Source: an uncultured Gammaproteobacteria bacterium (GTDB taxonomy: Bacteria > Patescibacteriota > Patescibacteriia > Magasanikbacterales > GWA2-37-8). From it: 64,000 nucleotides of DNA. Positions within the stretch are counted from its first letter, which is position 1, and each line of letters begins with the position of its first letter. The notes under the pieces were generated by a model. The model was given only the letters and a program-made list of their open reading frames with translations. It was not told the origin of the DNA and did not search any database. Where the stretch lies: assembly GCA_964355175.1 (NCBI GenBank), contig CAYHBZ010000002.1:396537-460536 (forward strand). The letters are read 5' to 3'. Both the position numbers and the translations under genes were made by a program. Of the stretch, positions 608 through 63,925 are shown in pieces.

Positions 608-1669
608 ATGACCATCCCTCCACACATTCCCGCACCTAGTTGCAATATCTCTACTCACAAACAATGGCAGAATATCAGGGTCCTATTGTTGGCCGTAATT
701 TTCGGTTTGTTTGCTGGACTCACCGGAGCCGCTATTATGCTTGGTTGGATCTGGCCTAGTATTGGGGTGGGAGAAAGTTGGATTGGGACTTCTGATAATT
801 TGGTATCTTCTCGTGACACTCTGTCCGATAATGTGCGCGCCGAGAGTGAAGATCGTTTGGGCACGGTCTATCGTGAGGTGGCCAGTAGCGGCGGACTGAA
901 TTATCTCAGTAATGACAAAAAAATCGGTGAAGCGGTTTTTATTTCCAGTGATGGTTGGATGGCGATGTATTATCCAAATTTTGACGGTAATTATAAAAAT
1001 TGGAAAGTGCTTTTGAAAAACGGCGCTTATATGGGTGTGCAAAAAGCGCTCCATGATAGCTATACCAATTTGGTATATTTAAAAGTTGCGGCCACTCAGG
1101 CCGGCGCTCAATTCAAGGTGGCCAATTTTAATGATCAGCTAAAATCCGGACAGGATATGTTTATCCACACTTCGGTCAATTGGCGTCATAGTTTTTTTAA
1201 TGATTACTCTGCCCAGGCTTTTGTTTATCCGCATTTGGATACCGCTCCGAGTATAGTGCTCAAGCTCAATGACAGCTTTGAAACCGGTAGCTGGGTAGTA
1301 GACAGCAGCGGTAAATTTGTTGGAGTAATGGCCGGCGGCAATAATGTGTTGCCAAATAATTATCTGACTACGGTATTGTCGACAGTATTGAGCAATCAAA
1401 AAATATTTTATCGCACTTTGGGAGTAAGCGGTTGGTTTTCTATTGAACAGCCGATAGTGGTGGGCTCCGAACGCCTCAACGGTTTTGCCGTATCTAAAAT
1501 TATCAGTGCCAAGGAACTAAAAGTAGGGGATGTTATTATGTCTATAAACGGACAGCTAGTGTCGCCAGATAATTTGTGGTATAATATTAACAATTATCAA
1601 AGTGTTAAATTACAAGTTTGGCGCAAAGGTAAGCTAATCGAGTTAGTGGAAACTACTAAACAAATTTAG
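608..1669 (+). CDS. membrane-anchored PDZ-domain protein with degenerate trypsin/HtrA-like core
   Basis: N-terminal TM (VLLLAVIFGLFAGLTGAAIML); C-terminal PDZ-like GFAVSKII..VGDVIMSINGQLV; no clear GNSGG catalytic motif. Confidence 0.5.
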   Translation: MTIPPHIPAPSCNISTHKQWQNIRVLLLAVIFGLFAGLTGAAIMLGWIWPSIGVGESWIGTSDNLVSSRDTLSDNVRAESEDRLGTVYREVASSGGLNYLSNDKKIGEAVFISSDGWMAMYYPNFDGNYKNWKVLLKNGAYMGVQKALHDSYTNLVYLKVAATQAGAQFKVANFNDQLKSGQDMFIHTSVNWRHSFFNDYSAQAFVYPHLDTAPSIVLKLNDSFETGSWVVDSSGKFVGVMAGGNNVLPNNYLTTVLSTVLSNQKIFYRTLGVSGWFSIEQPIVVGSERLNGFAVSKIISAKELKVGDVIMSINGQLVSPDNLWYNINNYQSVKLQVWRKGKLIELVETTKQI

Positions 1670-1690
1670 TTTTTAATTTTTTGCTTTTTT

Positions 1691-2296
1691 ATGTTTGAAA
1701 TTTTGAGCCGTAGTTTTAAATTGATTTTAACTTGGGGAATTTTGGCGGCGGTATTATCGGCTGGTATTAGTTTGCTTTTTCCTTGGAAATATAGCGCGGA
1801 AAGTCAGGTGCTGATTATTTCACGCGATCGTACTGGTGTAGATCCATATACTCAATCCAAATCGGCTGAACGCATCGGTGATAACCTCACTCAGGTAATG
1901 CAGACAGCTGATTTTATGCAGAAAGTGATGGAAACACCCAACACCGCTTTTGACAAATCCCGTTGGCAGAATATGACTGATCGCAAAATGCGTAAACAGT
2001 GGAAACAAGATGTAGTTGGAGAGATGCAGTATGGTAGTAGTATTATGAAAGTGACTGTATATAGTACCAAAGATGATGTGTTGCCTTTGGCCAATTCGGT
2101 CACCGGTGCTGTGGTCACTCATGGTTGGGAATATGTCGGCGGTGATGTGGCTCTAAAAACTGTCAGCGCGCCACTCGTGTCCCGTTGGATTGCGAAACCA
2201 AATATTATTTTGAATGGACTTCTTGGATTTTTGGCCGGTGTAATTTTATCTTCGGCCTGGGTTATTAAATATCAGCGCCATTTGTTTGGCCGTTAA
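1691..2296 (+). CDS. Wzz/chain-length-determinant-like bitopic membrane protein
   Basis: TM at both N- and C-termini flanking a ~140 aa soluble domain, the architecture of short Wzz-like proteins. Confidence 0.4.
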   Translation: MFEILSRSFKLILTWGILAAVLSAGISLLFPWKYSAESQVLIISRDRTGVDPYTQSKSAERIGDNLTQVMQTADFMQKVMETPNTAFDKSRWQNMTDRKMRKQWKQDVVGEMQYGSSIMKVTVYSTKDDVLPLANSVTGAVVTHGWEYVGGDVALKTVSAPLVSRWIAKPNIILNGLLGFLAGVILSSAWVIKYQRHLFGR

Positions 2297-2309
2297 TTTA
2301 AATTATTTT

Positions 2310-2636
2310 ATGACGGACCAGAATATCTCAAACGAACAATCCGACGCGCAATTATTGGGCGCCAAGCTTGGTTTATTTATTTCCTCAATGCCAATTGACG
2401 ACGCGGCCAAAGCTTCGATGGTAGAAGCGGCTCTTTTGATGAATGAACAAGAATTGACGGAATTCGTCAGCGCGCTCGAAACCCAATATGCTACTTTCAA
2501 AACCGAGGGTTTTAAAGAAGAATTAAAACAAAATTTGTCGGGAGTAAAGAATAAATTTGATGCCAAACGAGAAGCTCTGAAGAAAGAAGCTTTGGCCGAG
2601 ATGTCCGATTTGGAAAAAGAATTGGATAACTTATAA
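2310..2636 (+). CDS. hypothetical acidic helical protein
   Basis: ATG at 2310 inside ORF 2286..2636; tightly spaced with the next two genes (operon-like). Confidence 0.45.
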   Translation: MTDQNISNEQSDAQLLGAKLGLFISSMPIDDAAKASMVEAALLMNEQELTEFVSALETQYATFKTEGFKEELKQNLSGVKNKFDAKREALKKEALAEMSDLEKELDNL

Positions 2637-2838: not shown

Positions 2839-5800
2839 ATGGCTAGAAGTAATGCGGCCAAAAACCCCGCGCTCGAAACAGCAACGCCACCAGTGGTGCT
2901 GGTGGAAGACCTAAAAGAAAAGGAAATAAAACAAAAAAAAGAAATGAAGTTGGAAAAGATTGAGAGTGTCTTTGACGCGGCGAAGGAAAGGGTGAAAGGA
3001 AAAGAAGACCACCTGGCGGCGATGCACGCGGAATTGGTAGGTTTGCTTAATCAGATCCCGGATAAGGAAAATGGGGATTTTACGGTGCGATTACATAGAT
3101 TCGCGGATAGATTTGGAACTATTAAAAACCATTTAGATAATATGGTAGCCGAAAGCCAATTGCCGGAATTGGAATCGGGTGCTTTTGCGCCAGTGGATGC
3201 GACGGAGTCGTCGCCGGTGTCAAAGAGCAATAGTCATATTTCGGAATTAAAAAATTTCAAAGATACTAGTGGTGCTATTTTAAATGGGGCTGTAAATGAA
3301 AAAATAAAAGATAAACCGATTTTTCGCGGCAGCATGGTGTTTAAAAATGGTGACCATTATGTTGGTTTCTCTATTCTCTCAGCTGACGGATCTTATAAAT
3401 TTCACGGTGAAGGTTCTCTAGAAAAGGATGGGGGTAAGATGGCGCTTGAAGGTTTTTTTCAAAATGGCAAATTAAAAAATGGCCATCTGATTGAAAAATT
3501 AGCAGATGGTAGAACAAGAGTGGTATTTGCTGAAAATGAAAAAGCTGCGCGAGTTGAAACTGGATATTTTAATAGCAACAATCAGTTGGAAGGAGTGGGA
3601 GAAATTATTGATCAAAAACACGGTGTTAAAGAGCGTGGAGATTTTGTGAACGGCGAGCTTCGTGATGGTTATGTGGTAGATCTGATAAGCGGTAAACCGT
3701 TGGAAAAATGGGAAAATGGCAAACAAGTCGAAGCGGGAGAAAATTTACCAGCCGAAATCACTAATTCGGAAAAAAGTTTTGACAGAAGACTGGCTGCCAG
3801 AGAAAAAGAAAGAGAAATCAAAGTCGAAGAAGTTTTTGAAGCAGTCTCCGGTCTAGATGGTTTGGTAAACTTTGAGGATGTTTCCAATCAGGTTTTAAAT
3901 GGGAAAATCACTCACACGCCTAAAAGCGAACATATTTTTGACGGAGAAATAAAATCCGACAGTAGAGGCTATAAATACCAAGGCCAGGCTATTTTGGAAA
4001 GTGACGGTGTTTTCAGATTCCACGGCCAAGGAAAGCGTACCGCTGAGATGGCTTATGCAGGAAAGGTAGAACAGGAAGGTGAATTTTCCTATGGAACTTT
4101 TTTGAACGGTGTAGGAATATATACTGGCCAAGATATGGGCTACGGTGCAGATAAAGTTACAGAAAAAATGGAAAATGGCAAGACTGTAGAAAGAGTATTT
4201 TATCTTGAAAAATACAAAGATAAAAAGGATGTATTATTTGCCGGTCAGATGTTTGAAAAAGAATTTTCCAAAGACAATCTATATGTCGGTGAATTCACTA
4301 TGCCTAATGGCTCCGTATATAAAGGAGAGGCCTTTAAAAATAAAAAAGGTCAATTTGAATTGGTGAGCGGAAAGTCAGAGAGAATAAAATCCGCTACAGT
4401 GATAGATAAGTTTAAAGATTTATTTAGATTTGGTAGAAATAAAAAAGAAGAATCAAAATTAGCTACAGCCGAAGTTCAATCGGAAGTTGAGGCAGAAGCA
4501 GAACAGGCTCCGGAAGTTGTGGGCGAACAAGCGTTTCTTCTCGTCACTCCTGGAGGAGAAAATTACGCACTTAAAGGTATCGCCACTGATCAATCCGACG
4601 GCAGTAGGAAATTTAATGGAGAAATAAAAAATATTGATAACGGTGGTGAAGAGACTGGCTTCCAATATTCTGGTGAAGCAATTCTTTCTAGTAACAATGA
4701 AATAACTTTTCATGGCAAAGGAAAAAAGAGTGGCGCCTTTTTTGATGAAACCGGTGAATGGAATATGGGTGAGTTGGAAAATGGTGAAATCCATTCTAAA
4801 GATGGAGAACTTTTGAAAAAATATGTAAATGGACAAGAGGTGGCCGTGACCAAACCAGCTGAGAAGTCCAAAGAAAAAAGTTGGATCGGTAAAAAGTTGG
4901 AATCAGCCAAAGAGTCTGTAGCTTCCGCGTACAATTTTGTCACTACCAAAGAAGGAGCAAGGTTATCCAACCAAGCGGCCTATAAAATTGCCACTGGTTT
5001 TGTTGGTATTAAAATTGGAACGGATATAGCTTTGGCGGCCTATGCTGGCGCTTTGAATAAAGTTGGTGAAAAGGATTGGTTTTCGGAAGCTTTTAAAAAA
5101 CGATTGAAAGAGGAAGCGGCTGTAGCCGGAGAGTATAGTGATGTCTATAAACATCTGGGTGGTAGGGAGCAGATAGCTGCTATCAAAGCTGGATTTGCCG
5201 AATTTATGTCGGCCGTAAATCCAGAAGAAAATGAGAATGTGGAATTGAATCTGGTAGACGAGAAATATTCCGCTCTCAAAGCAAAAATCGAATCCTCCAA
5301 TAGAATCAACCAAGAAGCCAAAGGAAAATTTTTGGCTAAATTGGAAGAGATAAACCAAAAATTTGATCACAGAAATGAAAAGTTGGATGAACAGGAAGTG
5401 GCGGAAGCTAGCGCTTATATGAAAGCCTATATCGTAAATGATACGGCTGCTATGCAGATTGCCAGAGATAGTATCAGTGGCGTGGCCAAAGCGGTGATGG
5501 TTGGTGCCAGTGGCGGTAGCAGTCTTCTTTTGGCAGGAGCTATCGGCAGGGTGATGGGTATGGCCACTACCAAAGTAGTGGAGCGTGCGCAAAAAAGCCG
5601 CAGATTCAATGAACAAGCGGCATTGGAAAACAAAAAGACATTTAACGCCGCCGAGGATATCAAAGCCGCTTTGCTTGAGACAATGCACGGTTTGACTTTT
5701 AGTAAATTTAACGCGGGTAAAGATGTAAAGACCGGCAAAGATCTGGACAAGAAAGCTCTCTTTGCCAATTTTGCTAAATCGTTTGGTAATGTATTGATAA

Positions 5801-7815
5801 GCGCCGGTGTGGTGCTTGGTTTGGAAGGCAAGACTATCGGCAGTGCAATAAATGAGCTTGTCCATAAAATTTCCGGAGATGGATCAAATGCGGAATTTGG
5901 TCGTCAGATGGCGCAAAATGTTTCAGCCAAGGTTGCGGAAGCTAAAGGTGTAAATCTGGGTAAAATACCAGATAATGCTCCGGTCGCTGCCGCAATTGCC
6001 GCCGCCGAAGCCAAAGCAGCTGCTGTGGCAGCGGGCACAGCTTCAGATCATGTAGCGTCCAATGGTTTGGAAAACTCCGCCGATACCGGCGCTGGTGAAA
6101 ATTCAGCTTTGGAGACTTTCTACCAAGAGCATCCAAAATTATCGAGTGATGCCAAAGCTTTTTTTGATGATCTTGTAAAACAACATACTAAATTAAACAA
6201 TCCTGATTTTCTCAAAAAACTTTGGGAAGTTTCTGGTAATTCTAAATCTTCGCTTGATATCACCGGTGCCAAAGTACAGACCGCTATTTTCACCGAGATT
6301 ATTCACAGTGAGGGCAAGGAAGCGGCCGTAGCTTATTTGAAAGATGAAACTCATTTGCACGGTTTGGCTTTGCAAAAATTAGGAAAAGATGGCGTTGAAG
6401 CTTTTGTGGAAAGATATCTCAAAGGTGATGCTGGTGTGCAAGCCAAGTTGGAAAATAAATTATATGGGGCCATGAAAGCTGATATTGATACCGATCTTAC
6501 AAACAAAGGTTTTATCCAGAGACACGGTGATGGATCGGTTCGGGATGTCGGTGCGGCTAAAGGCCGACATTTCTTTGGGGTTGGTAAAGACGGCAAGCCT
6601 GTATTAGACGATGGTAAGGTTTCTAGGTTTACCCATCACAGCCCTGAACATTCGGTGGCCGGAAGTGGTAAAACAGCTTTGGACAAAATAGTATCCGGTG
6701 AAAAGTTACCTAAAGTTGGTTTACATGAACAAAAAATTGGCATTGGTCCAAATATTCAAAAAGGAATTCCAACTGGTTGGGCCGCCGCTAGTGAAGCAGG
6801 TCCAAAAGGGCAGGCTATGGTAAATGGTTTTATGGATGAACAGGGCCATGGAAGATTTTTAATTCATTCTACTGATCCTGGATCAGAATTTGATGTGGAT
6901 AGAGACATGCGCATGGTGGATTCTAATAGCGGCAAAATTTTTGATCTCGATGGAAATCATGTCGGTTATCTAAATGCTCCGATGGCAGAGAATACTCCAA
7001 CACCAGTGTCCGCAACTCCAGGCAGAGCTAGTTGGTCTAGTGGTGGAAATGGTTCTGAAAAAGGTAACGCCACCCAAAATGTAGTCAGAGCAGAAAGATC
7101 TGTTGATCACGGCGGCGGCGGTGCTCCGAAAGAACAAGCGGTAGTAGCTCCTGCAGAACAAGAACCTGCTCCAGAAGAGAAGAAGCCAGTTCGAGAAACA
7201 AGAGCACAAGTAAAAGCTCCCGGTATTGAAGACATGCTAAAAGCCGAACAAACTCTACAAGAAGATATGAAAGTTGGTAAATCCGTGGAGGCTGAACCTG
7301 TTCCGGTGGTAAAAGAAATTACTTCATTGGAGGATGGGCGTGAGGCGATTGCGGCTTTAGAATATTTGGACGGCGAAGAAAAAACTCGTTTGAGTAATTT
7401 TAGTTACTTACTCCAATGGCAACATGATCTCTATGGTCAAAACGGTTCAACTTTGCGCAACATGCTGGAAGGACAGGATGCGTTTGGTACTCTTGGTAAA
7501 GATCAGATCAATAGTATGATGGCCGAGTTGGCTCATAATAATGAACTGGCCAGTCGAGAGTTTATGAGAGCAGTATCAGATCATCAGCCGTATGATAAAA
7601 TTATAGAAAAATTGAATGATAAGATGCCTGGTTACGCGATGTTCCATGATGAGGATAATGCCGGCTTTGTCGATAAGATTATAAAAACGGATCTTTCGCA
7701 AAATGCAGGCGAAAATAAGGCCGCTTTTAGAGATTTGGAACTGGCAAGAGTGAAAGAAATGGTGGATCAGGCCGAGGTAAACAAGCTAATGCAGGCTCGA
7801 CAGGCAAAAAGATAA
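2839..7815 (+). CDS. giant 1658-aa protein: MORN-like repeat modules, central hydrophobic/Ala-rich region, Pro/Glu-rich spacer, C-terminal helical domain
   Basis: Single uninterrupted ORF; three ~60-aa modules (F.GEIK..G..Y.G.AIL.SDG...FHG.GK) at about aa 165-215, 360-420 and 585-645. Confidence 0.8.
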   Translation: MARSNAAKNPALETATPPVVLVEDLKEKEIKQKKEMKLEKIESVFDAAKERVKGKEDHLAAMHAELVGLLNQIPDKENGDFTVRLHRFADRFGTIKNHLDNMVAESQLPELESGAFAPVDATESSPVSKSNSHISELKNFKDTSGAILNGAVNEKIKDKPIFRGSMVFKNGDHYVGFSILSADGSYKFHGEGSLEKDGGKMALEGFFQNGKLKNGHLIEKLADGRTRVVFAENEKAARVETGYFNSNNQLEGVGEIIDQKHGVKERGDFVNGELRDGYVVDLISGKPLEKWENGKQVEAGENLPAEITNSEKSFDRRLAAREKEREIKVEEVFEAVSGLDGLVNFEDVSNQVLNGKITHTPKSEHIFDGEIKSDSRGYKYQGQAILESDGVFRFHGQGKRTAEMAYAGKVEQEGEFSYGTFLNGVGIYTGQDMGYGADKVTEKMENGKTVERVFYLEKYKDKKDVLFAGQMFEKEFSKDNLYVGEFTMPNGSVYKGEAFKNKKGQFELVSGKSERIKSATVIDKFKDLFRFGRNKKEESKLATAEVQSEVEAEAEQAPEVVGEQAFLLVTPGGENYALKGIATDQSDGSRKFNGEIKNIDNGGEETGFQYSGEAILSSNNEITFHGKGKKSGAFFDETGEWNMGELENGEIHSKDGELLKKYVNGQEVAVTKPAEKSKEKSWIGKKLESAKESVASAYNFVTTKEGARLSNQAAYKIATGFVGIKIGTDIALAAYAGALNKVGEKDWFSEAFKKRLKEEAAVAGEYSDVYKHLGGREQIAAIKAGFAEFMSAVNPEENENVELNLVDEKYSALKAKIESSNRINQEAKGKFLAKLEEINQKFDHRNEKLDEQEVAEASAYMKAYIVNDTAAMQIARDSISGVAKAVMVGASGGSSLLLAGAIGRVMGMATTKVVERAQKSRRFNEQAALENKKTFNAAEDIKAALLETMHGLTFSKFNAGKDVKTGKDLDKKALFANFAKSFGNVLISAGVVLGLEGKTIGSAINELVHKISGDGSNAEFGRQMAQNVSAKVAEAKGVNLGKIPDNAPVAAAIAAAEAKAAAVAAGTASDHVASNGLENSADTGAGENSALETFYQEHPKLSSDAKAFFDDLVKQHTKLNNPDFLKKLWEVSGNSKSSLDITGAKVQTAIFTEIIHSEGKEAAVAYLKDETHLHGLALQKLGKDGVEAFVERYLKGDAGVQAKLENKLYGAMKADIDTDLTNKGFIQRHGDGSVRDVGAAKGRHFFGVGKDGKPVLDDGKVSRFTHHSPEHSVAGSGKTALDKIVSGEKLPKVGLHEQKIGIGPNIQKGIPTGWAAASEAGPKGQAMVNGFMDEQGHGRFLIHSTDPGSEFDVDRDMRMVDSNSGKIFDLDGNHVGYLNAPMAENTPTPVSATPGRASWSSGGNGSEKGNATQNVVRAERSVDHGGGGAPKEQAVVAPAEQEPAPEEKKPVRETRAQVKAPGIEDMLKAEQTLQEDMKVGKSVEAEPVPVVKEITSLEDGREAIAALEYLDGEEKTRLSNFSYLLQWQHDLYGQNGSTLRNMLEGQDAFGTLGKDQINSMMAELAHNNELASREFMRAVSDHQPYDKIIEKLNDKMPGYAMFHDEDNAGFVDKIIKTDLSQNAGENKAAFRDLELARVKEMVDQAEVNKLMQARQAKR

Positions 7816-7925: not shown

Positions 7926-7954
7926 TTGACAAAATTCGTAGATGGTGCTATACT
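7926..7954 (+). promoter_or_regulatory. sigma70-like promoter upstream of cassette A
   Basis: TTGACA (7926-7931), 17-nt spacer, TATACT (7949-7954). Confidence 0.5.
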
Positions 7955-8072: not shown

Positions 8073-8084
8073 GTTCTTTACAAT
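8073..8084 (+). promoter_or_regulatory. GTTCTTTACAAT box, copy 1 (followed by long leader hairpin, about 8093-8140)
   Basis: Exact 12-mer shared with 8941-8952 and 10397-10408. Confidence 0.5.
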
Positions 8085-8245
8085 AAATAGTGCTGAGCCC
8101 ACATGAGATCAAGAATTTCTTGATTTGATGCGGGTTCAGTGCACACAGCATTGACGTCCTCCGCGATTTTGCGGATTCGTTCAGTGCTGCGTACTGCAGC
8201 CAGGTCACGCGCCCACCTCAGTGGCGTTTCGTTCAGGAGTTTCCG

Positions 8246-8779
8246 ATGACCACCGCAAAGCACCCCGATCCGAACCATCCGGACCCCGGCACCACCGAAG
8301 AGCCCGTCGTCGACAAGGCGAAGGGCGACACGGTGGTGACCACGACGACCACCACGAGCGTTTCGTCGGCCGAGCCCATCAAGGCAAAGCCGGTGGCGAC
8401 CACCGACACCACGGCTGGCAAGACGGCGACCCAAGAGCCCAAGAAGGGTGGCTGGCCGCTCGGGACCATCGCCGGAGCTGTCGTGCTCGGTCTTCTGCTC
8501 CTCGGCGGCGTCTACTGGTTCGGCAGCCACAACAGCAGCACGCCGGTCGTCCCGCCCATCGCGGTCGCCGGTTGCTGTCTTCCCCAGGCCACCGTCGCGA
8601 GCCCCTGCTGCCCGCAACCGCCGGCTCCGCCCCCGCCGCCCGCCCCCGTCGTCAAGAAGAAGACGGTCGGCGAGTGCGTCGCCCAAGCCGTCGCCGGCAT
8701 GGAGGTCGCCCATGAGGACGACCGCCTCGCCGCGATGGACGGCGCCCGCGAAGAATGCGAGGAAGAATACGGCAAGTAG
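8246..8779 (+). CDS. GC-rich cassette A: bitopic membrane protein (Thr/Pro-rich N-terminal region, one TM, Cys/Pro-rich C-terminal region), no recognised family
   Basis: AGGAG 6 nt before ATG; strong G/C at codon position 3 in this frame only; TM WPLGTIAGAVVLGLLLLGGVYWF preceded by KKGG. Confidence 0.65.
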   Translation: MTTAKHPDPNHPDPGTTEEPVVDKAKGDTVVTTTTTTSVSSAEPIKAKPVATTDTTAGKTATQEPKKGGWPLGTIAGAVVLGLLLLGGVYWFGSHNSSTPVVPPIAVAGCCLPQATVASPCCPQPPAPPPPPAPVVKKKTVGECVAQAVAGMEVAHEDDRLAAMDGAREECEEEYGK

Positions 8780-8940
8780 CCGTTCCTGTCTCGCGTCGCT
8801 ATGTCGGTTCGGCGGGCCCTCAGCAATGAGGGTCCGCCGGCCGACTGGCTCGAATAGGACCTTTGTAGATTCCACTAGGGAAACTCCAAAGGTCCCCTAG
8901 ATTACATTCTTTTGGAAACAAGAGGATGTTGATAGGAAAA

Positions 8941-8952
8941 GTTCTTTACAAT
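8941..8952 (+). promoter_or_regulatory. GTTCTTTACAAT box, copy 2 (TTGATA 12 nt upstream)
   Basis: Exact 12-mer; about 35 nt upstream also similar to the copy 3 region. Confidence 0.5.
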
Positions 8953-9196
8953 TAAAACCAACAAAATTTTTTCCCACCTAAAAAGAATTATTATTTATAG
9001 TAATTCACTCTCGGTGGGAAAAAGTGTGGCGGAAATTCCGTTGCATAGCCTCCGACAGAGTCCCAATTGGGGCAAGTGCCCCGCGTGCGGGCTACTCTGT
9101 TACAGCGACCATTTCTGGGAAGCTGACCGAACGGCCCGCACGGCCGGTGTTCCAGTGTCTTGGTTTCGTGGGGTGAAAGTCCCCTGGAGTACAGCG

Positions 9197-10192
9197 ATGA
9201 ACAAGAATTCGAAGTTCCACAACCTCAGCATCTTGCTGACCCTGGCCATGGGGATCATGGTCGCTTCCAATTCCTACGCCGACGTGGCCACGGCTCGCGC
9301 TCGTGCCGAAGCCGCTCGTAGCCAGGCCAATCGGGCTGAGGTGAAAGCGGTCGACGCACAGACTGCGGCCAACGCGGCCAAGACCGGCGCCACCAACGCC
9401 CAGACCGCGGCCGATCAGGCCAAGGTCGAAGCGACCGCGGTGGGCACCAAGGCGGCCACTGACCTCGCTACGGCGATCCGCGCCCTCAACGGTGCGGTCG
9501 GCGGTGCGCGTGCGGCAGCGGTCAACGGTGATCGTCAGCTCGAGCGCAAGTTCAAGGCGGAGGCCGAGCGCCTTCAGACCGAGATCGAAGCGCTCAAGAA
9601 GCGGGCGCAGCACGAGTGTGCGGCGTTCGATGACAAGGGCAGCCAGGCGGCCTGTCTGACCATGCTCGAGAAGATCAACGCCAAGAACGGCGAAGTCACC
9701 ATGCACGGGCAAGACAAGGACACGGAGGTCCAGATCGCCAAGGTGGGACAGCAGTCCAAGGTGGTCCAGGAGATCTTCGACAACGCAAACCAAAACATGG
9801 ACGCCATCAAGGCGATCCAAATGGGTTGCGTCAACCAGGCCTTCGTCGACAAGGACGGCGTCAGCAAGAGCAAGTGGGAATGCCCCAAGGACATGAAGCG
9901 CGGCCCGCAGTTGCGCTACGAGCTCACGAACGTCTCGAAGTACGGCGACCACAGCGTCGTCATCGAGCCGGCCGAGAGCGGTGGCAATTCCAAGTGGGGC
10001 AAAGTGCTCGGCTTCGGCGCCATCGGTGGTGCTGCTGGCGGTGCTCTTGGCTGGGCCTTCTTCCCGAACCATGAAACCATGGAAGATGGCAGCGTCATGC
10101 ACCGGAATTACACCGGTCTCGTCGCTGGCACGGCCATCGGTTTCGTGGTCACGGCGGTGGCCACCCTGGTCATCGAAGAACTGACCGAATAG
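9197..10192 (+). CDS. GC-rich cassette B: secreted Ala-rich coiled-coil protein with C-terminal Gly-rich hydrophobic anchors, no recognised family
   Basis: GGAG 7 nt before ATG 9197; signal-peptide-like MNKNSKFHNLSILLTLAMGIMVASNSYA; GC3-biased frame; 9014-9196 treated as 5' leader. Confidence 0.65.
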   Translation: MNKNSKFHNLSILLTLAMGIMVASNSYADVATARARAEAARSQANRAEVKAVDAQTAANAAKTGATNAQTAADQAKVEATAVGTKAATDLATAIRALNGAVGGARAAAVNGDRQLERKFKAEAERLQTEIEALKKRAQHECAAFDDKGSQAACLTMLEKINAKNGEVTMHGQDKDTEVQIAKVGQQSKVVQEIFDNANQNMDAIKAIQMGCVNQAFVDKDGVSKSKWECPKDMKRGPQLRYELTNVSKYGDHSVVIEPAESGGNSKWGKVLGFGAIGGAAGGALGWAFFPNHETMEDGSVMHRNYTGLVAGTAIGFVVTAVATLVIEELTE

Positions 10193-10396
10193 GTCAACGG
10201 GTGAGGAGATCACCCCAAAGGATTGCAAGTGTGTTGGTTCACTTGCGCCAAATCTCGGTGTAGCTTATCTTGTCCCGCATTCGCGGTACGAGAGAAAGTT
10301 CACTAAACCGGTGGCGTGAACGATGGCTCAAATAGAGCTGTCGGTCACGCCCCAACAACTATCTTCTGTTTTTCAAACAGGGGATTGAGTTGGTAA

Positions 10397-10408
10397 GTTC
10401 TTTACAAT
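10397..10408 (+). promoter_or_regulatory. GTTCTTTACAAT box, copy 3 (TTGAGT 12 nt upstream; followed by hairpin, about 10426-10476)
   Basis: Exact 12-mer. Confidence 0.5.
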
Positions 10409-10641
10409 TTATTTCGTTAGATTTTCTCATACAGGACATAGGATATTTTTTGTATCTTGTGTCCTGTGTGAGAAGCCCCCAGTGGGGGTTGCCTGGGTGA
10501 AAACCCGACTAGGTCGGGGCGTTCGCTCCGGCAATTCCTCACTAGGGTGGTAAAAACGCCATCCGGACGGGTCAACTTCGACCTTTTCGGTAAAGTAGCA
10601 GTGTCTTTCTTTGTCCGCCCTTTAGTGGGCCGGAGGTTCTG

Positions 10642-19122: not shown

Positions 19123-19185
19123 TCCGTTCCCGATCTGTTCGGGCACTTGTAGTTTAGCCTTGATTTCTGAAGGCAAAAGCTCGGT

Positions 19186-56121: not shown

Positions 56122-56206
56122 GGAGAGGTCGCATAGTGGCCGAGTGCGCCGCCTTGGAAAGGCGGTATACCGCAAGGTATCGAGGGTTCAAATCCCTCTC
56201 TCTCCG
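56122..56206 (+). tRNA. tRNA-Ser (anticodon GGA), long variable arm, CCA not encoded
   Basis: Hand-folded: acceptor GGAGAGG/TCTCTCC, anticodon stem CCGCC/GGCGG with loop TTGGAAA, 16-nt variable arm, T-arm GAGGG-TTCAAAT-CCCTC. Confidence 0.85.
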
Positions 56207-56244
56207 CTGGGTCACGCTTATATGAGCAAAGGGTTCATATTCCA

Positions 56245-56276
56245 AAAACATCTCGACTAAGTCGGGATGTTTTTTT
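56245..56276 (+). terminator. intrinsic terminator after tRNA-Ser
   Basis: AAAACATCTCGACTAAGTCGGGATGTTTTTTT. Confidence 0.65.
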
Positions 56277-56405
56277 ACCAGATAAAAAAATAATTCTTCA
56301 TAAAAACACACCGTCGGGTGTGTTTTTATATTGACAAAAATGTATTTTTAGTATAGGCTCTAGCCTGATCGTTCTCGCGGATTTCTCGCGCTACAGGAGG
56401 ACATC

Positions 56406-56774
56406 ATGGCAGATTCTCTGCCGTTCCAAGAAGATCTGCGTAAGCCATTCCACATCTCAGTCTGCGACCGGATCGCTCTCTGCCTCACGGCAATGAGCAT
56501 CTCCGGTGGAAGGGAGATCCCGCTCGGCATCCAGGAGGTGACCAGAGACCTGGATCTCTTGGACAAGACCAAGGTCCCGGCCAAGGAACTGCCCAGTGTG
56601 ACAAAGGCCCTCTACGGCCTGCGGGTGATGTACGGCCCTCTCATGCCGACGGTTTCTCAGCGCCTGACCCAATCGATCGACCTCTTGGTCGTGTATCAAG
56701 AGGAGCTGGCCGAGGATGGCAAGCTGGATCGCGACCTCGTGTGGTTGCCGCCTGTCGTCGACCCGGTAGCCTAG
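56406..56774 (+). CDS. GC-rich cassette G: 122-aa soluble protein, no recognised family
   Basis: AGGAGG 5 nt before ATG; GC3-biased frame; TTGACA at 56331. Confidence 0.6.
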   Translation: MADSLPFQEDLRKPFHISVCDRIALCLTAMSISGGREIPLGIQEVTRDLDLLDKTKVPAKELPSVTKALYGLRVMYGPLMPTVSQRLTQSIDLLVVYQEELAEDGKLDRDLVWLPPVVDPVA

Positions 56775-56900
56775 CTGGTCTGTAGATTTTCACCCGGTCT
56801 TCGTCTATGTCCGGGTTGAGAGGTGTTCATACACCACTCCGTCCCGACTTAGTCGAGACGTGAATCACCGCAAGGTAGTGACGAGAACATCAGACATTCA

Positions 56901-56970
56901 GACTGTTCGCGCTCACTTAAGATTATAACTTGATTATAGTTTTAAGTGACGAACAGTCTTTTTGTTTTTT
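56901..56970 (+). terminator. long hairpin terminator of cassette G
   Basis: AGACTGTTCG..TCACTTAA-(AT-rich apex)-TTAAGTGACGAACAGTCT followed by TTTTTGTTTTTT. Confidence 0.6.
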
Positions 56971-57041
56971 CTAAAGGATATTTTATAGATACGGATGGCA
57001 ATACTTTTGGTTTGCATCAGCCGGATGAAAAGGCGGCATAA

Positions 57042-57070
57042 TTGACTTTTTTGAATTTAATCGCTAAAAT
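57042..57070 (+). promoter_or_regulatory. sigma70-like promoter of cassette H
   Basis: TTGACT, 17-nt spacer, TAAAAT. Confidence 0.55.
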
Positions 57071-57105
57071 GGTGTTCAGCCATTTTGGCTTTTTGGAGTT
57101 TCGCC

Positions 57106-57327
57106 ATGAGTGTAAAATATCGTCCGGGAACCGGCAGGGAGCCGCGCATCTTCCATGAGAGTATGGGCTTGCCCAGCCGGACGGTCGTTCAGATCGACTG
57201 GTGGACCTGTCCGAACCTGATCGTGAAGGATGAGCAGTTCGGAAATCGCGAACTCTGTGACTTTCAGAACCCGTCTTGGGAACACAAGTGCCAGGGTTGC
57301 GGTGCCGATCGTCCCGATAAGTCCTAG
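57106..57327 (+). CDS. GC-rich cassette H: 73-aa protein with RanBP2-like zinc-ribbon (WWTC...C-x3-N-x6-C-x2-C-GA-x-RP)
   Basis: TGGAG 7 nt before ATG 57106; GC3-biased frame; C-terminal motif shared with cassette I. Confidence 0.6.
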   Translation: MSVKYRPGTGREPRIFHESMGLPSRTVVQIDWWTCPNLIVKDEQFGNRELCDFQNPSWEHKCQGCGADRPDKS

Positions 57328-57335
57328 GAGGACTC

Positions 57336-57362
57336 ATGCGTATCCGCGCACCCCCGCCTTAA
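57336..57362 (+). CDS. putative arrest-type mini-ORF MRIRAPPP*
   Basis: Stop of cassette H embedded in TAGGAGGA; ATG 3 nt after the SD; 8 codons ending RAPPP-stop; homologous to 58764..58793. Confidence 0.4.
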   Translation: MRIRAPPP

Positions 57363-57387
57363 AAAAGGCACAGGGAAGTAGCGGAAT

Positions 57388-57453
57388 AAAAACCGCCGCC
57401 AACCTGTTTTGTTTCCAAATACAATTGGAGATGGGATAGGCTGGCGGTTTTTT
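57388..57453 (+). terminator. long hairpin terminator of cassette H
   Basis: AAAACCGCCGCCAACCTGTTTTGTTTCCAA...TTGGAGATGGGATAGGCTGGCGGTTTTTT. Confidence 0.6.
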
Positions 57454-57455
57454 GT

Positions 57456-57484
57456 TTGACTTCCAGAGAGGGATTTGATAGTTT
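57456..57484 (+). promoter_or_regulatory. sigma70-like promoter of cassette I
   Basis: TTGACT, 17-nt spacer, TAGTTT; -35 abuts the terminator T-run. Confidence 0.45.
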
Positions 57485-57523
57485 TGATGGGCGCAAATTT
57501 CGCGCCAACCAGTGAGGAACACA

Positions 57524-57925
57524 ATGACTTGTGGTCAACGTCGCAAACTGCGTCTTGATATGATCGTGGTCAAGGGCTGGAACGGTCGTCGCCTCTCCAA
57601 GGGGTGTCGGAAGTACATACGCCGTCACCTGCCTCTGGAATGGCAGGCGATCGAGGATCGTGCTCAACAGGAGCGTGAGCTGGTGCGGCAGATCGAGCTG
57701 CACAAGGCGGCTGCTCGCAACAAGCAGACGGCTACGCGGCCGAGCTTCTCCGCGCCGTCGTTCGCTACGGCGAAGCCTGCACCGGTGCCGGTCAAGCCTC
57801 CGCGGGATCCATGGTGGACCTGCAAGGCCGAAACCAAGGGAGGTTATTTCTCCGGCGCCTGCAACGAGCTGAACTACAGTAATACCTCCTGCACCTACTG
57901 TGGTGCGGCTCGCCCGGCAGCGTGA
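57524..57925 (+). CDS. GC-rich cassette I: 133-aa basic protein with C-terminal RanBP2-like zinc-ribbon
   Basis: GAGGA 5 nt before ATG 57524; C-terminus PWWTC..(11)..C-NEL-N-YSNTS-C-TY-C-GAARP, paralogous to cassette H tail. Confidence 0.6.
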   Translation: MTCGQRRKLRLDMIVVKGWNGRRLSKGCRKYIRRHLPLEWQAIEDRAQQERELVRQIELHKAAARNKQTATRPSFSAPSFATAKPAPVPVKPPRDPWWTCKAETKGGYFSGACNELNYSNTSCTYCGAARPAA

Positions 57926-57931
57926 GGAATC

Positions 57932-57958
57932 ATGCACTACTCCACCGGACCGCCTTGA
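57932..57958 (+). CDS. putative arrest-type mini-ORF MHYSTGPP*
   Basis: Stop of cassette I embedded in TGAGGA; ATG 3 nt after; 8 codons ending GPP-stop. Confidence 0.35.
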   Translation: MHYSTGPP

Positions 57959-57988
57959 AATATAGGTGGGCAGGGCGGAGGAAGATTA

Positions 57989-58053
57989 CATCGACCACCA
58001 AACTGCTTTGTATGAAAATTTTTTATATAGAGCAGAGTGGTCGATGTTTTTTT
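57989..58053 (+). terminator. long hairpin terminator of cassette I
   Basis: CATCGACCACCAAACTGCTTTGTAT...ATATAGAGCAGAGTGGTCGATGTTTTTTT. Confidence 0.6.
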
Positions 58054-58064
58054 ATTTGAAATAC

Positions 58065-58093
58065 TTGACAAAAGCTCTATTTTTGTCTATAAT
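58065..58093 (+). promoter_or_regulatory. consensus sigma70 promoter of cassette J
   Basis: TTGACA, 17-nt spacer, TATAAT. Confidence 0.6.
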
Positions 58094-58197
58094 CATTAGT
58101 TAATTAATGGTCATCATATGATGCACGCCCAAAGAGGTTGGTCGTGTTTCATACCGTGATCCGTTAAGGAACATGGGCAACTCGCGTAGGGGGAAAT

Positions 58198-58746
58198 ATG
58201 TTGGAAATCATTTTGGAACCGAAGCTCAAGAACAAGTTCCTGACCGCTCGGGTCAAGGCGCATTGCGGGGTCATGACATGGTCGTTTTGCACCGCTGAAG
58301 GCGGTGTGGCGATCATCGAAGCGTTCGTCCGCGAACGCGTCTGGGGCTGGCAGGAAACTCGTCCGCTCTGCCGCCAGATGGAAGCGACTTTCCCCAAGGA
58401 TGCCAGCAAGTTGGCCGCCTGGCTCAACATGTTCGAGTCCTCCTCGTGCGATGTGGCCGTTCAGCCCATCCATCTCGTGGATCAAGCCGGCGCTTCCCTC
58501 GCTATCAGTGGCAACCAGCTGCATGATGGTGTGGTCGCTACGATCGGTACGGCCGTCTGCATGCTGGATCACTACCTCGTTCGCGGGGTGTTGCGCAACG
58601 GCGACTGCATCTCCGCGACGCAGCAGATGCTCCAGGCTGGCATGACCGACGTCATTTCGGAAAAGGCGTTTCGTGCTTTGACCGGTGGCATTCCGCTGTC
58701 CGGTTTCAACGAGTACGACTACCGTCGGATGGTCGGTCAACTCTAG
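58198..58746 (+). CDS. GC-rich cassette J: 182-aa soluble Cys-containing protein, no recognised family
   Basis: GGGGG 4 nt before ATG; clear GC3-biased frame. Confidence 0.65.
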   Translation: MLEIILEPKLKNKFLTARVKAHCGVMTWSFCTAEGGVAIIEAFVRERVWGWQETRPLCRQMEATFPKDASKLAAWLNMFESSSCDVAVQPIHLVDQAGASLAISGNQLHDGVVATIGTAVCMLDHYLVRGVLRNGDCISATQQMLQAGMTDVISEKAFRALTGGIPLSGFNEYDYRRMVGQL

Positions 58747-58763
58747 TCAAAGAGGAGGAGAAC

Positions 58764-58793
58764 ATGGTTTCTATCCGTGCTCCGCCCCGATAA
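58764..58793 (+). CDS. putative arrest-type mini-ORF MVSIRAPPR*
   Basis: AGAGGAGGAG then 3 nt then ATG, 17 nt after cassette J stop; 9 codons containing IRAPP. Confidence 0.4.
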   Translation: MVSIRAPPR

Positions 58794-58824
58794 AGGGCGA
58801 TAGGAAGGAGTACGGAGACAAAGA

Positions 58825-58888
58825 AAGCCGCGCACCAACCTATTTTGTTTCTAAATTTTTGGAAATAGAATAGGGTGCGTGGCTTTTG
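58825..58888 (+). terminator. long hairpin terminator of cassette J
   Basis: AAAGCCGCGCACCAACCTATTTTGTTTCTAAAT...GGAAATAGAATAGGGTGCGTGGCTTTTGTTTT; homologous to 57388-57453. Confidence 0.6.
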
Positions 58889-58947
58889 TTTTCCCCTATA
58901 CAAAACCTCATTTTTTGTGTAGGATAAGGGTTGATAACTTAATCAAT

Positions 58948-62086: not shown

Positions 62087-62090
62087 TTTT

Positions 62091-62702
62091 ATGAAACAAG
62101 AAATTCGTTTTATTGAAACTATACCGGACGAAACTATTACCTTGGCTCCCAAGGCTGATTTAGTTTTGGTAGCACTGGTGACTAAAGGTTGGGAAGGTAC
62201 GCGTGAATTTAAAGTAGATGCTTCCGGGGAGGGAAGTATCTTTAGAGGAATATTTTTTGTGCTGGGAGAAAAGAGTGATTCCTTTTTGTTAAACATTACC
62301 ACTATTCATAGTGCCAACGATACTCTGATTCATACCCGCATGCGCGCGGCTCTCACCGATAGCGCGGTTTGTAATGTGTCGGGTGTAGCTAAAGTACAAG
62401 AAAAAATAATTGGCGCTGATTCGTATTTCTCTCACCATACATTATTGCTCTCGGGAAATTGCTCCGCTAAAGCGGCACCAAATTTGGAAATAAAAAGTGA
62501 TAGTGTAAAAGCCGGACATGCCGCCAGTGTGGGTAAAGTAGATGAAGAAGCTTTGTTCTATTTATTATCTCGTGGTATTAGCCGGAAAGACGCGAAAGCA
62601 TTATTGGTGCAAGGATTTTTTGAAACTGAAATGAGTGAGATTGAAGATGAATATATTAAAAGCGCTATTCGCGAAGCTCTCACTAAATTTCTTTTTAAAT
62701 AA
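62091..62702 (+). CDS. sufD: short SufD-like protein
   Basis: HAASVGKVDEEALFYLLSRGI motif; only about 200 aa; position between sufB and sufS. Confidence 0.6.
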   Translation: MKQEIRFIETIPDETITLAPKADLVLVALVTKGWEGTREFKVDASGEGSIFRGIFFVLGEKSDSFLLNITTIHSANDTLIHTRMRAALTDSAVCNVSGVAKVQEKIIGADSYFSHHTLLLSGNCSAKAAPNLEIKSDSVKAGHAASVGKVDEEALFYLLSRGISRKDAKALLVQGFFETEMSEIEDEYIKSAIREALTKFLFK

Positions 62703-62704
62703 TT

Positions 62705-63925
62705 ATGCCTCTCAATATCCAAAAAGATTTTCCAATTCTCAAACGCCGCATCAATGGCAAACGATTGGTGTATTTGGATAACGCCGCTACTTCTCAAAAA
62801 CCAAAAGTAGTTTTGGATGCTTTACAAAATTTTTATACTACGATGAATGCCAATATTCATCGCGGTGTGCATACATTGTCCGAAGAATCCACGGCCGCCT
62901 ACGAAGCGGTGCGTGAAAAAACTGCCAAATTTATCGGCGCTAAATCTGCCGGTGAAGTTGTATTTACCAAAAACGCGACCGAATCTATCAATTGTGTGGC
63001 CGTCAGCTGGGCCAAGAAAAATATTAGAAAAAGGGACGAGGTAATCGTGAGTGCGCTGGAGCACCATGCGAATCTAGTGCCGTGGCAAGAACTTTGCCGT
63101 GAAACTGGAGCGGTGCTAAAAATCATTCCATTGACCGAAGATTTTTTATTGGATATCGAAGGATTTCAAAAATTATTAAACCTCAATACTAAATTGGTTT
63201 GTGTCGCCGGTATGTCCAATGTTACCGGCAGTATTGTGCCAATAAAAGAAATTATTGAACTATCCCATGTTGTAGGAGCAAAAGTTCTAGTAGATGCTTC
63301 TCAAAGTATCGTGCATAGCGCGGTAAATGTGCAAAATATTGGTTGTGATTTCTTAGTTTTTTCTTCTCATAAAATGCTCGGCCCGATGGGAGTGGGTGTT
63401 TTATATATTAAAGAAAGTTTGATTGCCGCAATGGATCCGTATATGTACGGTGGTGATATGATTGAAACCGTAGATCAATATACTTCCAAATATAAAACTG
63501 ATTATTCCAAATTTGAAGCTGGTACACAAAATGTGGCGGATGTGATTGCTTTTGGTGCGGCTTTAGATTATCTTAAAAAAATTGGTATGAGCGCGATTGA
63601 AAAGCATGATCGTGAATTGCTTGTTTACGCCAAAACTCAATTTAGTAAATTTAAACAAGTAAAATTATTTAGTCCAAAAAATATTAAAAATTGCGGACCA
63701 GTATTATCGTTTGTAGTAGCTGGTGTGCATCCGCATGATATTGCTAGTGTATTTGATAGCGAAGGCGTGGCGATTCGTGCCGGTTTTCACTGTGCGGAGC
63801 CGCTAGTGCGTCGCTTGGGCGTGGCTTCTACTGCCAGAATGAGTTTTTATCTGTATAATACCAAAGCGGATGTCGATGTGGCCATGAAAGCTCTGCAAAA
63901 AACTCTTAAGATTTTTAAGGTTTAA
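62705..63925 (+). CDS. sufS: cysteine desulfurase, SufS type
   Basis: HKMLGP PLP-Lys motif and RAGFHCA active-site Cys region. Confidence 0.9.
   Translation: MPLNIQKDFPILKRRINGKRLVYLDNAATSQKPKVVLDALQNFYTTMNANIHRGVHTLSEESTAAYEAVREKTAKFIGAKSAGEVVFTKNATESINCVAVSWAKKNIRKRDEVIVSALEHHANLVPWQELCRETGAVLKIIPLTEDFLLDIEGFQKLLNLNTKLVCVAGMSNVTGSIVPIKEIIELSHVVGAKVLVDASQSIVHSAVNVQNIGCDFLVFSSHKMLGPMGVGVLYIKESLIAAMDPYMYGGDMIETVDQYTSKYKTDYSKFEAGTQNVADVIAFGAALDYLKKIGMSAIEKHDRELLVYAKTQFSKFKQVKLFSPKNIKNCGPVLSFVVAGVHPHDIASVFDSEGVAIRAGFHCAEPLVRRLGVASTARMSFYLYNTKADVDVAMKALQKTLKIFKV

Follow-up and report, generated by a model that had tools for sequence, protein, structure and literature searches.

Shine-Dalgarno-led GC-rich cassettes among Shine-Dalgarno-less host genes in a Magasanikbacteria chromosome

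How do genes that begin with strong Shine-Dalgarno (SD) sequences and genes that begin with none come to stand side by side in a single bacterial chromosome, and would the same ribosomes read both? The question is raised by a 64,000-nucleotide stretch of DNA, hereafter the window, from an uncultured member of the Patescibacteriota (GTDB order Magasanikbacterales, GWA2-37-8; assembly GCA_964355175.1, contig CAYHBZ010000002.1, positions 396,537 to 460,536 of the forward strand). GC content averages about 41% over the window, and the AT-rich remainder outside the islands described below, some 86% of it, is of housekeeping type, with genes that Pfam labels as mraY, murF, ftsI, a P-type ATPase, transketolase, gatC, lgt, and sufCBDS; these are here called host genes. 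Four GC-rich islands with sharp borders (positions 8101-12275, 18226-20150, 33901-34400, and 56210-58825) make up the other 14% or so and contain ten open reading frames (ORFs), designated c1 to c10, together with three mini-ORFs of 8-9 codons. The ten ORFs, here called cassettes, have a GC content of 0.56-0.69 against 0.41 and a GC content at third codon positions (GC3) of 0.62-0.87 against about 0.40 in host genes, the kind of atypical composition by which genomic islands are recognized. The islands recur in independent assemblies and samples (ERZ4201063, ERZ4201064, ERR3856787, ERR3856788, SRR24858483, and SRR24858484), in one case on a contig of 953,736 bp (ERZ4201064 NODE_2), and this recurrence in six independent assemblies or runs rules out an assembly chimera.

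The difference in start signals between cassettes and host genes is real, statistically strong, and found throughout the lineage. At all 13 cassette starts, mini-ORFs included, an SD-like motif lies 2-7 nucleotides before the ATG; each motif is contained in, or closely matches, TAAGGAGGTGA, which is complementary to the canonical tail of 16S rRNA. From c1 to c10 the motifs are AGGAG, GGAG, GGAGG, AGGAG, GAGGTGA, AAGGA, AGGAGG, GGAG, GAGGA, and AGGGGG; those of the mini-ORFs, which follow c8, c9, and c10, are AGGAGG, GAGGA, and AGAGGAGGAG, respectively. For scoring, an SD core was defined as one of the 4-mers AGGA, GGAG, or GAGG at a spacing of 3-12 nucleotides, and duplex energy was computed against ACCUCCUUA. 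A core is present at 12 of the 13 starts, and at all 13 the duplex with ACCUCCUUA is at least as stable as -5.1 kcal/mol (mean -7.9), compared with a core frequency of 6.3% and a mean duplex energy of -3.0 kcal/mol among the 221 other ATGs of the same islands. The chance of at least 12 cores in 13 starts is 5e-14, and a Mann-Whitney test on duplex energy gives p = 4e-8. The preliminary description of this DNA had reported AGGAG, GGAGG, or GAGGA at every one of these starts; literally, these 5-mers occur at 8 of the 13, so that "all" was a slight overstatement, and the substance of the claim holds with the 4-mer core. Because knowledge of the SD guided the choice of the starts of c2, c4, c5, c8, and c9, a first-ATG rule without tuning was applied as a counter-check to the window and 21 related loci, where it still finds the core before 15 of 19 GC-rich ORFs (79%). 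The spacing of SDs of the cassette class across the lineage peaks at 4-6 nucleotides.

Host genes in the window begin quite differently. The core occurs at 2 of 50 host starts (AGGA at 11 nucleotides from 42951 and GGAG at 7 nucleotides from 49876), that is, 4% compared with 4.9% at random host ATGs, and the mean duplex energy of the 50 starts is about -1 kcal/mol. The starts that the preliminary description had inspected by eye and called A/T-rich without an SD are as it described them in all 17 plus-strand cases, and its wider proposal is upheld in that the host genes are effectively SD-independent, the core standing at background level both in these 50 starts and in the related loci. A different set of features marks the host starts. 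U occupies position -1 in 44 of the 50, against 1 of the 13 cassette starts; positions -6 and -7 favor A; and hardly any G occurs between -12 and -1. The U at -1 may extend the pairing to A37 of the initiator tRNA, an effect reported from chloroplasts. Folding of the region from -30 to +30 gives -4.2 kcal/mol for host genes (28% GC) against -12.9 kcal/mol for cassettes. The genes for IF3, L35, L20, and SmpB, 3-9 kb upstream of the window, likewise lack an SD, and within host coding sequences SD-like motifs are depleted: in 303 of them compared with synonymous-codon shuffles, the ratio of observed to expected counts is 0.66 for GGAGG (z -5.3) and 0.49 for GGAGGT, with GGAGG and AGGAG at 0.66-0.69 and the permuted controls GGGAG and GAGGG at 0.94 and 1.13. 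Leaderless translation was considered for the host genes generally and rejected, as the starts lie mostly within operons or 15-30 nucleotides downstream of a -10 box, positions that fit operons and short leaders with few exceptions. One such exception is the 401-amino acid host gene starting at 39696, where a TATAAT ends 7 nucleotides before the ATG, making it a candidate leaderless mRNA. As an aside on the translation genes upstream, the called start of infC is an ATG that follows A-rich sequence.

The same contrast extends over the lineage. In the set formed by the window and 21 Magasanikbacteria loci around mraY, scored by the untuned first-ATG rule, 305 AT-rich host genes show the core at 5.2% (control zone, 2.0%) and U at -1 in 81%, and U at -1 is found in 1 of the 19 GC-rich ORFs. 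Among 593 AT-type genes in 55 loci of broader relatives, fetched by way of the rhodanese gene, the core occurs at 5.2%, the control zone giving 5.6%; those loci hold few GC-rich ORFs, two in number, both with AAGGAG(G). Even where a relative has about 50% GC overall, its core genes, with GC3 reaching 0.70, show no SD, so that absence of the SD is not simply a matter of AT-richness, and having one is characteristic of the cassette class. For the same reason, and given an island background of only 6.3%, the SD as a by-product of GC content was rejected. Related SD-poor genomes of the candidate phyla radiation (CPR) also contain a few genes with very strong SDs (AAGGAGG, GGAGGA, AAGGAGGAG, and GAGGGAGGTGA), found, in the numbering used here for related loci and contigs, at L098 1506-2027, L146 3826-4341 and 10393-11124, and L100 around 6982; these are mostly orphans, with one dCMP-deaminase-like gene, and a minority class led by SDs may thus be widespread in this part of the CPR. 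Stop codons differ as well: TAG ends nine of the ten cassette ORFs in the window (c9 has TGA) and 14 of the 19 GC-rich ORFs lineage-wide, where TAA is absent (0/19), and TAA accounts for 76% of host stops. As an independent signal a TAG/TGA bias was discarded, for among G-containing stops the two classes look alike by eye in these small counts (TAG:TGA 14:5 in the cassette class, 38:34 in host genes), leaving only the absence of TAA as clear.

The cassettes are also old. A search with MraY in one genome per species returned about 23 close relatives, at 59-94% identity. In other Magasanikbacteria species c4 stands at the same locus in L005, L008, L009, and L090, c6 in L005, and c10 in L091, where it precedes the rhodanese-suf genes. 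Between the window and L005 the synonymous divergence (dS) is 1.30 for c6 and 1.13 for c4, with host genes at 1.1-2.0 (saturated), and GC3 is undiminished in both members of each pair (0.77 and 0.83 for c6, 0.85 and 0.70 for c4); the c6 protein is 61% identical to its L005 orthologue. Over the c2, c4, and c10 families dS ranges from 0.7 to 1.9 and GC3 is 0.66-0.89 throughout. Host-like, saturated dS combined with undiminished GC3 means that the GC-richness is maintained and is not the remnant of a recent import. The ratio of nonsynonymous to synonymous divergence (dN/dS) is 0.25-0.67 in cassettes against 0.03-0.2 in host genes; for the pair of window and L005 the ranges are 0.25-0.6 and 0.03-0.14. 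The SD itself is kept in the orthologues, in leaders and before proteins that have diverged: in five of five for c4 (AGGAG four times and GGAGGA), two of two for c5 (GAGGTGA in both), three of three for c2 (GGAG, GGAG, and GGGAG), two of two for c6 (AAGGA and AAGAGG), four of four for c10 (AGGGGG, GGAGG, GAGGTAGAGG, and AAGGAG), and two of two for c8 (GGAG and GGGGG). It is shown, then, that the two classes exist and that the GC-rich one is old and vertically inherited, with SD and high GC3 maintained under saturating synonymous divergence.

For the four cassette families searched, relatives are few. Searches of up to 5.8 billion proteins returned the query alone for c6 and three clusters each for c4 and c2, and for c10, with which 1.84 billion representatives were searched exhaustively by HMMER, six clusters only. 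On contigs that could be inspected, the cassette relatives keep their own flanking modules or the same Magasanikbacteria gene neighborhood. Viral contigs scanned with c10 and c2 held no relatives of either, and a phage or plasmid origin was rejected on that ground. No integrase or transposase match to Pfam was found among the island ORFs, nor any repeats resembling attachment (att) sites flanking the islands. Hypermutation targeted to the ORFs was likewise rejected for c4, c6, and c10, in which dS does not exceed the host background; this exclusion does not cover c2.

On balance these observations are probably explained by two native gene classes, each with its own mode of translation initiation, in one Magasanikbacteria chromosome. 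The first class is the AT-rich bulk of the genes, including those for cell-wall synthesis, Suf, GatCAB, IF3, L35, and L20, with SD-less, unstructured starts preceded by U at -1. The second consists of lineage-specific, fast-evolving orphans, ten of them in the window, each forming its own transcription unit and led by an SD. The SDs would be read by the organism's own ribosomes, which would imply a retained canonical anti-SD, a view that draws on the way in which the SD variants together cover the sequence complementary to a canonical 16S tail, and on the conservation of both the SDs and the mini-ORF peptides. The messages of the second class, long-leadered, structured, and GC-rich, would need the SD, and the AU-rich messages of the first would load ribosomes without it. 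We infer, in other words, both that the native ribosome reads these SDs and that structure is the reason for having them.

Several points weigh against this explanation. That the cassettes are transcribed and translated is a prediction from their sequence. The presumed reader of the SD is not in view: no 16S gene was found in the window or in 23 Magasanikbacteria loci by Rfam, nor in 174 loci by motif scans, and the 10 kb upstream of the window hold infC-rpmI-rplT, smpB, and the gene for transfer-messenger RNA (tmRNA), without rRNA. In a survey of Parcubacteria the anti-SD motif was found in only 48% of them (PMC9297842), a result in accord with the SD-independence of the host genes. If Magasanikbacteria belong with the Parcubacteria that lack it, the inferred SD reader is missing. 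Further, the depletion of SD-like motifs in host coding sequences is matched by an equal depletion of their complements (observed to expected 0.51 for CCTCC, and 0.51-0.67 for CCTCC and CTCCT), and may thus act at the level of DNA, through a restriction system or another cause, and not reflect avoidance of the anti-SD. The untranslated regions (UTRs) of c2 and c3 are 94-100% identical between genomes in which the dS of the ORFs is about 0.8, a pattern that could mean swapping of alleles and not simple vertical descent. Finally, the upkeep of a GC3 of 0.7-0.85 in an AT-rich genome has no reason in the two-class explanation, nor in any of its rivals; it might come from selection for mRNA stability or structure, from gene conversion biased toward GC where loci are prone to recombine, or from codon-based gating.

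The general order of parts in a cassette is a promoter, a GC-rich leader of 30-285 nucleotides, the SD, the ORF, in some units a further SD with a mini-ORF ending in RAPP or GPP, and a 3' module of several hairpins with a terminator. The promoters are AT-rich and of the sigma-70 type; those of c1, c8, and c10 come from an automated scan and the remaining ones were read by eye. Native genes use the same type of promoter. At the other end the units close with T-run hairpins. The parts identified in the window are as follows.

7926-7954, plus strand: promoter-like element of c1, TTGACA-17-TATACT with a TG extension, from the automated scan; a leader of about 285 nucleotides is implied.
8235-8239, plus strand: SD of c1, AGGAG, 6 nucleotides before the ATG.
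8246-8779, plus strand: c1 ORF, 177 amino acids, GC 0.69, GC3 0.87; single-pass membrane, Pro-rich orphan; ends in TAG.
8949-9196, plus strand: promoter region of c2 and GC-rich leader of about 190 nucleotides, with SD GGAG at 9186-9189.
9197-10192, plus strand: c2 ORF, 331 amino acids, GC3 0.82; orphan whose family has three clusters; its protein has a signal peptide, a coiled coil, and a membrane segment at the C terminus; ends in TAG.
10193-10641, plus strand: 3' UTR of c2, then promoter and leader of c3, with SD GGAGG at 10632-10636; near-identical in L093 up to the SD.
10642-12063, plus strand: c3 ORF, 473 amino acids, GC3 0.84; lipoprotein-like N terminus and Cys-rich Dicty_CTDC repeats; ends in TAG.
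18126-18155, plus strand: promoter-like region of c4, TTGACA followed by TTTAATA, read by eye and not listed by the automated scan.
18295-18299, plus strand: SD of c4, AGGAG, 7 nucleotides before the ATG; SD kept in L005, L008, L009, and L090.
18307-19122, plus strand: c4 ORF, 271 amino acids, GC3 0.85; single-pass membrane coiled-coil protein with syntenic orthologues 29-55% identical; ends in TAG.
19123-19295, plus strand: 3' module of c4, four hairpins ending in a terminator; shared between species, with paired bases that change in a compensatory way.
19496-19502, plus strand: SD of c5, GAGGTGA, the same in the L090 orthologue.
19505-20074, plus strand: c5 ORF, 189 amino acids, GC 0.57, GC3 0.62; single-pass membrane protein; ends in TAG.
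20075-20240, plus strand: 3' module of c5, a paralogue of that of c4.
34001-34354, minus strand: c6 ORF, 117 amino acids, GC3 0.77; SD AAGGA at 34361-34365; promoter of the TTGACT type at about 34400-34436.
33855-34000, minus strand: 3' UTR of c6, about 95% identical to L005, compared with about 78% for host DNA.
56122-56207: tRNA-Ser gene adjoining island 4, with the same promoter type as the cassettes.
56331-56359, plus strand: promoter-like element of c7, TTGACA followed by TATAGG, downstream of tRNA-Ser.
56395-56400, plus strand: SD of c7, AGGAGG, 5 nucleotides before the ATG.
56406-56774, plus strand: c7 ORF, 122 amino acids, GC3 0.77, orphan; ends in TAG.
57042-57070, plus strand: promoter of c8, TTGACT-17-TAAAAT, from the automated scan.
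57106-57327, plus strand: c8 ORF, 73 amino acids, with a weak RanBP2-type zinc-ribbon match; SD GGAG at 57095-57098; homologue in L095.
57326-57362, plus strand: SD AGGAGG and mini-ORF (57336-57362) encoding MRIRAPPP and stop, directly 3' of the c8 stop.
57524-57925, plus strand: c9 ORF, 133 amino acids, with a C-terminal zinc-ribbon-like motif; SD GAGGA at 57514-57518; ends in TGA.
57924-57958, plus strand: SD GAGGA and mini-ORF (57932-57958) encoding MHYSTGPP and stop; the TGPP ending before the stop is kept in L089 and L095.
58065-58093, plus strand: promoter of c10, TTGACA-17-TATAAT, matching the sigma-70 consensus at 12 of 12 positions; conserved in L089, L091, and L092.
58198-58746, plus strand: c10 ORF, 182 amino acids, GC3 0.75; SD-like AGGGGG at 58188-58193; family of six clusters.
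58751-58895, plus strand: SD AGAGGAGGAG, mini-ORF (58764-58793) encoding MVSIRAPPR and stop, and a long terminator hairpin; predicted folding energy -70.9 kcal/mol (z -8.2); 96% identical in L089.

The non-coding parts of the cassettes are often better conserved than the ORFs that they enclose. After ORFs of the c4 and c5 type a 3' module of about 120-170 nucleotides is found in five genomes (the window, L005, L008, L009, and L010), ending in a terminator with an A-tract and a T-tract; the modules have four hairpins in common, with compensatory changes in the second. The 3' module of c10 is 96% identical in L089, which stems from a sample whose related genome shows about 76% identity in a host gene. 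The cassette UTRs match no Rfam family. The idea that the islands are genes for structured non-coding RNAs is ruled out for the ORFs by GC3 periodicity, protein homology between species, the Pfam repeat family, and signal peptides. The proteins differ by island, islands 1 and 2 encoding proteins with signal peptides or membrane segments and islands 3 and 4 small soluble ones. Pfam assigns them to no families except for the Cys-rich Dicty_CTDC repeats of c3 and the weak match of c8. For c10 the AlphaFold model, made from seven sequences, is confident (predicted local distance difference test score 90.8) and, by its appearance, contains an internal two-fold repeat, the unit being a beta-hairpin plus helices; compared with the PDB it gave no match at E <= 0.001.

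The mini-ORFs offer a further view of how the SDs may be used. Their peptides are conserved between species (MVSIRAPPR and stop is identical in L089, which also keeps an ending QTGPP and stop, and L095 has MKRSTGPP and stop), and the main ORFs beside which they stand are only 40-48% identical between species. Such conservation at the peptide level shows that the SD-led mini-ORFs are translated in this lineage. An exact-match search for MVSIRAPPR in Joint Genome Institute (JGI) metagenomes found nothing. In the predicted fold the codons of the c10 mini-ORF pair with the downstream sequence, which suggests an attenuator-like switch. RAPP is also the ribosome-arrest motif of ApdA and ApdP (PMC7897499, PMC10951233), to which the mini-ORFs bear a likeness in ending with RAPP followed by P or R, or with TGPP, right before the stop and in conserving the peptide across species. 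They differ in having 8-9 codons and no secretion-sensing N terminus and in lying downstream of a gene and before a terminator hairpin, whereas ApdA and ApdP sit upstream of a Sec or YidC gene.

A different explanation draws on c2 and c3. The c2 leader and the whole spacer between c2 and c3 are 94-100% identical in L093 and L094, from two other metagenomes, and identity then falls abruptly to 42-49% at the amino acid level exactly at the ATG, to return about 35 nucleotides past the stop. Two readings offer themselves: RNA elements of extreme conservation in these UTRs, or hypervariable ORF alleles carried on a common backbone. The latter would make the cassettes exchangeable alleles in fixed expression sockets, in which the promoter-leader and 3' modules are chromosomal and act as homology arms and a pool of GC-rich ORFs recombines between strains or species under diversifying selection, as surface or host-contact proteins might, with the SD traveling along or being selected in each allele. 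An ORF dN/dS of 0.35-0.67, far above that of host genes, would fit such exchange, as would the signal-peptide and membrane proteins of islands 1 and 2, the arrangement of the cassettes as tandem paralogues with common modules, and the breaking of Logan contigs inside islands, as strain variation would give. Yet the dS of c4, c6, and c10 is not above that of host genes, so that vertical descent with relaxed or diversifying selection suffices; samples with accession numbers neighboring those of L093 and L094 hold species about 76-82% identical; no recombinase is associated with the islands; and the GC-richness is left unexplained here also. Exchange of this kind is compatible with two native classes, and as an explanation in its own right it is thought unlikely, if still worth serious attention.

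A second alternative keeps both classes native and asks whether the SD-led one is translated only at times. Here the anti-SD would normally be occluded or unused, and SD-led messages would be read by a sub-population of ribosomes or in one physiological state, the SD and the GC-rich codons together marking genes that are regulated jointly. Avoidance of the SD by host genes even in relatives of about 50% GC, and a small and sharply distinct SD-led class in several related genomes, would be expected from such gating, and the conserved structured leaders and SD-led, arrest-type mini-ORFs suggest heavy post-transcriptional control. Studies of bS21 reportedly deal with occlusion of the anti-SD in Flavobacteria, with bS21, bS18, and bS6 taking part. 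A precedent exists in the Bacteroidetes, which lack SDs and keep the anti-SD (PMC6847099). Gating on this pattern is nonetheless regarded as rather improbable.

Recent arrival from elsewhere fares worse. The preliminary description had traced the start signals of the cassettes to a foreign donor, high in GC and dependent on SDs, and the corresponding scenario is a recent import that is perhaps poorly translated, or not translated, in the recipient. Its appeal lies in the composition (56-69% GC against about 41%, GC3 up to 0.87), in island 4 adjoining tRNA-Ser, in the lack of Pfam families other than Cys-rich repeats typical of other phyla, and in a cassette content that varies between species, L095 for example having no c10. 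High-GC bacteria are typically biased toward TGA stops, unlike these ORFs, 14 of 19 of which end in TAG. In addition, the orthologues are syntenic with host-like dS and undiminished GC3, the SD is kept in all of them, no donor-like homologues appear among the 5.8 billion and 1.84 billion proteins searched, integrase and att repeats were not found, and the ORFs lie between an AT-rich promoter and a terminator of native type, in UTRs more conserved than the ORF. The donor proposal is not supported, given this synteny, dS, GC3, SD retention, and want of donor homologues, and recent import is strongly disfavored, with very little probability left to it. The same comparison separates the cassettes from acquired genomic islands in general, which they resemble in the sharp contrast of composition, the tRNA neighbor at one island, the orphans, and the variable content between species, and from which they differ in being as old as the species splits, with GC3 that is not decaying, native promoters and terminators, and conserved UTRs.

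Genes may also be written for a ribosome other than that of the cell that carries them, as in Agrobacterium, whose transferred DNA (T-DNA) carries plant expression signals. That the cassettes form an orthogonal expression class of this sort, meant for a host cell or for specialized ribosomes and not for the bulk ribosomes of the Magasanikbacterium, would be a conjecture from analogy to which hardly any weight is given; promoter, SD, codon usage, and stop codon would then be under selection for reading elsewhere. Least credible is the specific form, close to a speculation of the preliminary description, in which the cassettes are expressed, after transfer of DNA or RNA, in a GC-rich, SD-using host of an episymbiont, for although consensus promoters, canonical SDs, and GC-rich codons fit a high-GC bacterium better than the resident genome and selection keeps these signals in place, the cassettes lie dispersed between core genes, neither borders nor transfer genes are seen with them, native genes share their type of promoter, and many of the products have signal peptides or membrane anchors of their own.

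Returning to two native classes with separate initiation modes, the arrangement has partial counterparts in known systems. In Bacteroidota of the Flavobacterium johnsoniae type, as here, ordinary genes are SD-less genome-wide, initiation relies on low structure and upstream nucleotides, and a minority of genes have a strong SD; the nucleotide favored is A at -3 there and U at -1 here, and the SD-led minority here consists of GC-rich orphans with conserved UTR modules. Loss of the anti-SD in part of the Parcubacteria (Tsurumaki et al. 2022, RNA; PMC9297842) concerns the same CPR super-group, and leads likewise to expect that most genes make no use of SD helices; gene classes within a genome are no part of that survey, and the conserved SD class here argues that the SD is still read in this lineage. 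Integron cassettes are alike in being small single-ORF units with their own ribosome-binding site, a structured 3' element, and tandem arrays of unrelated or paralogous ORFs; the cassettes here differ in having their own promoter and terminator, in being scattered among core genes, and in being syntenic between species. No intI was found among the island ORFs and no sites of the attI or attC type were recognized, no dedicated attC model having been applied. In chloroplasts and cyanobacteria the SD is reportedly dispensable where the start region is unstructured, a finding said to come from work of Scharff and colleagues in PLoS Genet in 2011. The present genome resembles such mixed initiation in that unstructured starts are without and structured starts with an SD (the folding energies given above, -4.2 and -12.9 kcal/mol); the difference is that the modes coincide here with two compositional and evolutionary classes of genes. 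It is this coincidence, in a CPR bacterium, that is new, mixed initiation itself being already known. A search of the literature found no paper on classes of SD usage or on maintained GC-rich gene classes in CPR genomes.

The CPR, or Patescibacteria, make up a large share of bacterial diversity and have reduced ribosomes, many of them with no anti-SD that can be detected, and to our knowledge the start of translation in them is essentially unstudied. The locus lends itself to asking under which conditions an SD is required. Its signature of GC3 and SD picks out a hidden gene class in episymbionts, possibly one concerned with host interaction, and a GC3 of 0.7-0.85 at saturated dS in a genome of 41% GC challenges the equation of a compositional island with recent transfer.

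Some observations concern the annotation of the region and its surroundings. Public gene calls on the minus strand at L185 17471-18106 and 19810-20979, corresponding to window 8078-8875 and 10417-11586, put c1 and c3 antisense. These calls are long spurious ORFs of the kind typical of GC3-rich DNA, and the families are therefore probably misrepresented in protein databases; with two genes called on the wrong strand, the class is under-represented there. Directly upstream of island 1, positions 2839-7815 encode an AT-rich, host-type protein of 1658 amino acids that belongs to no recorded family. At L185 7912-8308, some 2 kb before the window begins, a tmRNA gene with the tag ANLLSKVKTALASAFSPSFSFAPVAA lies between smpB and infC.

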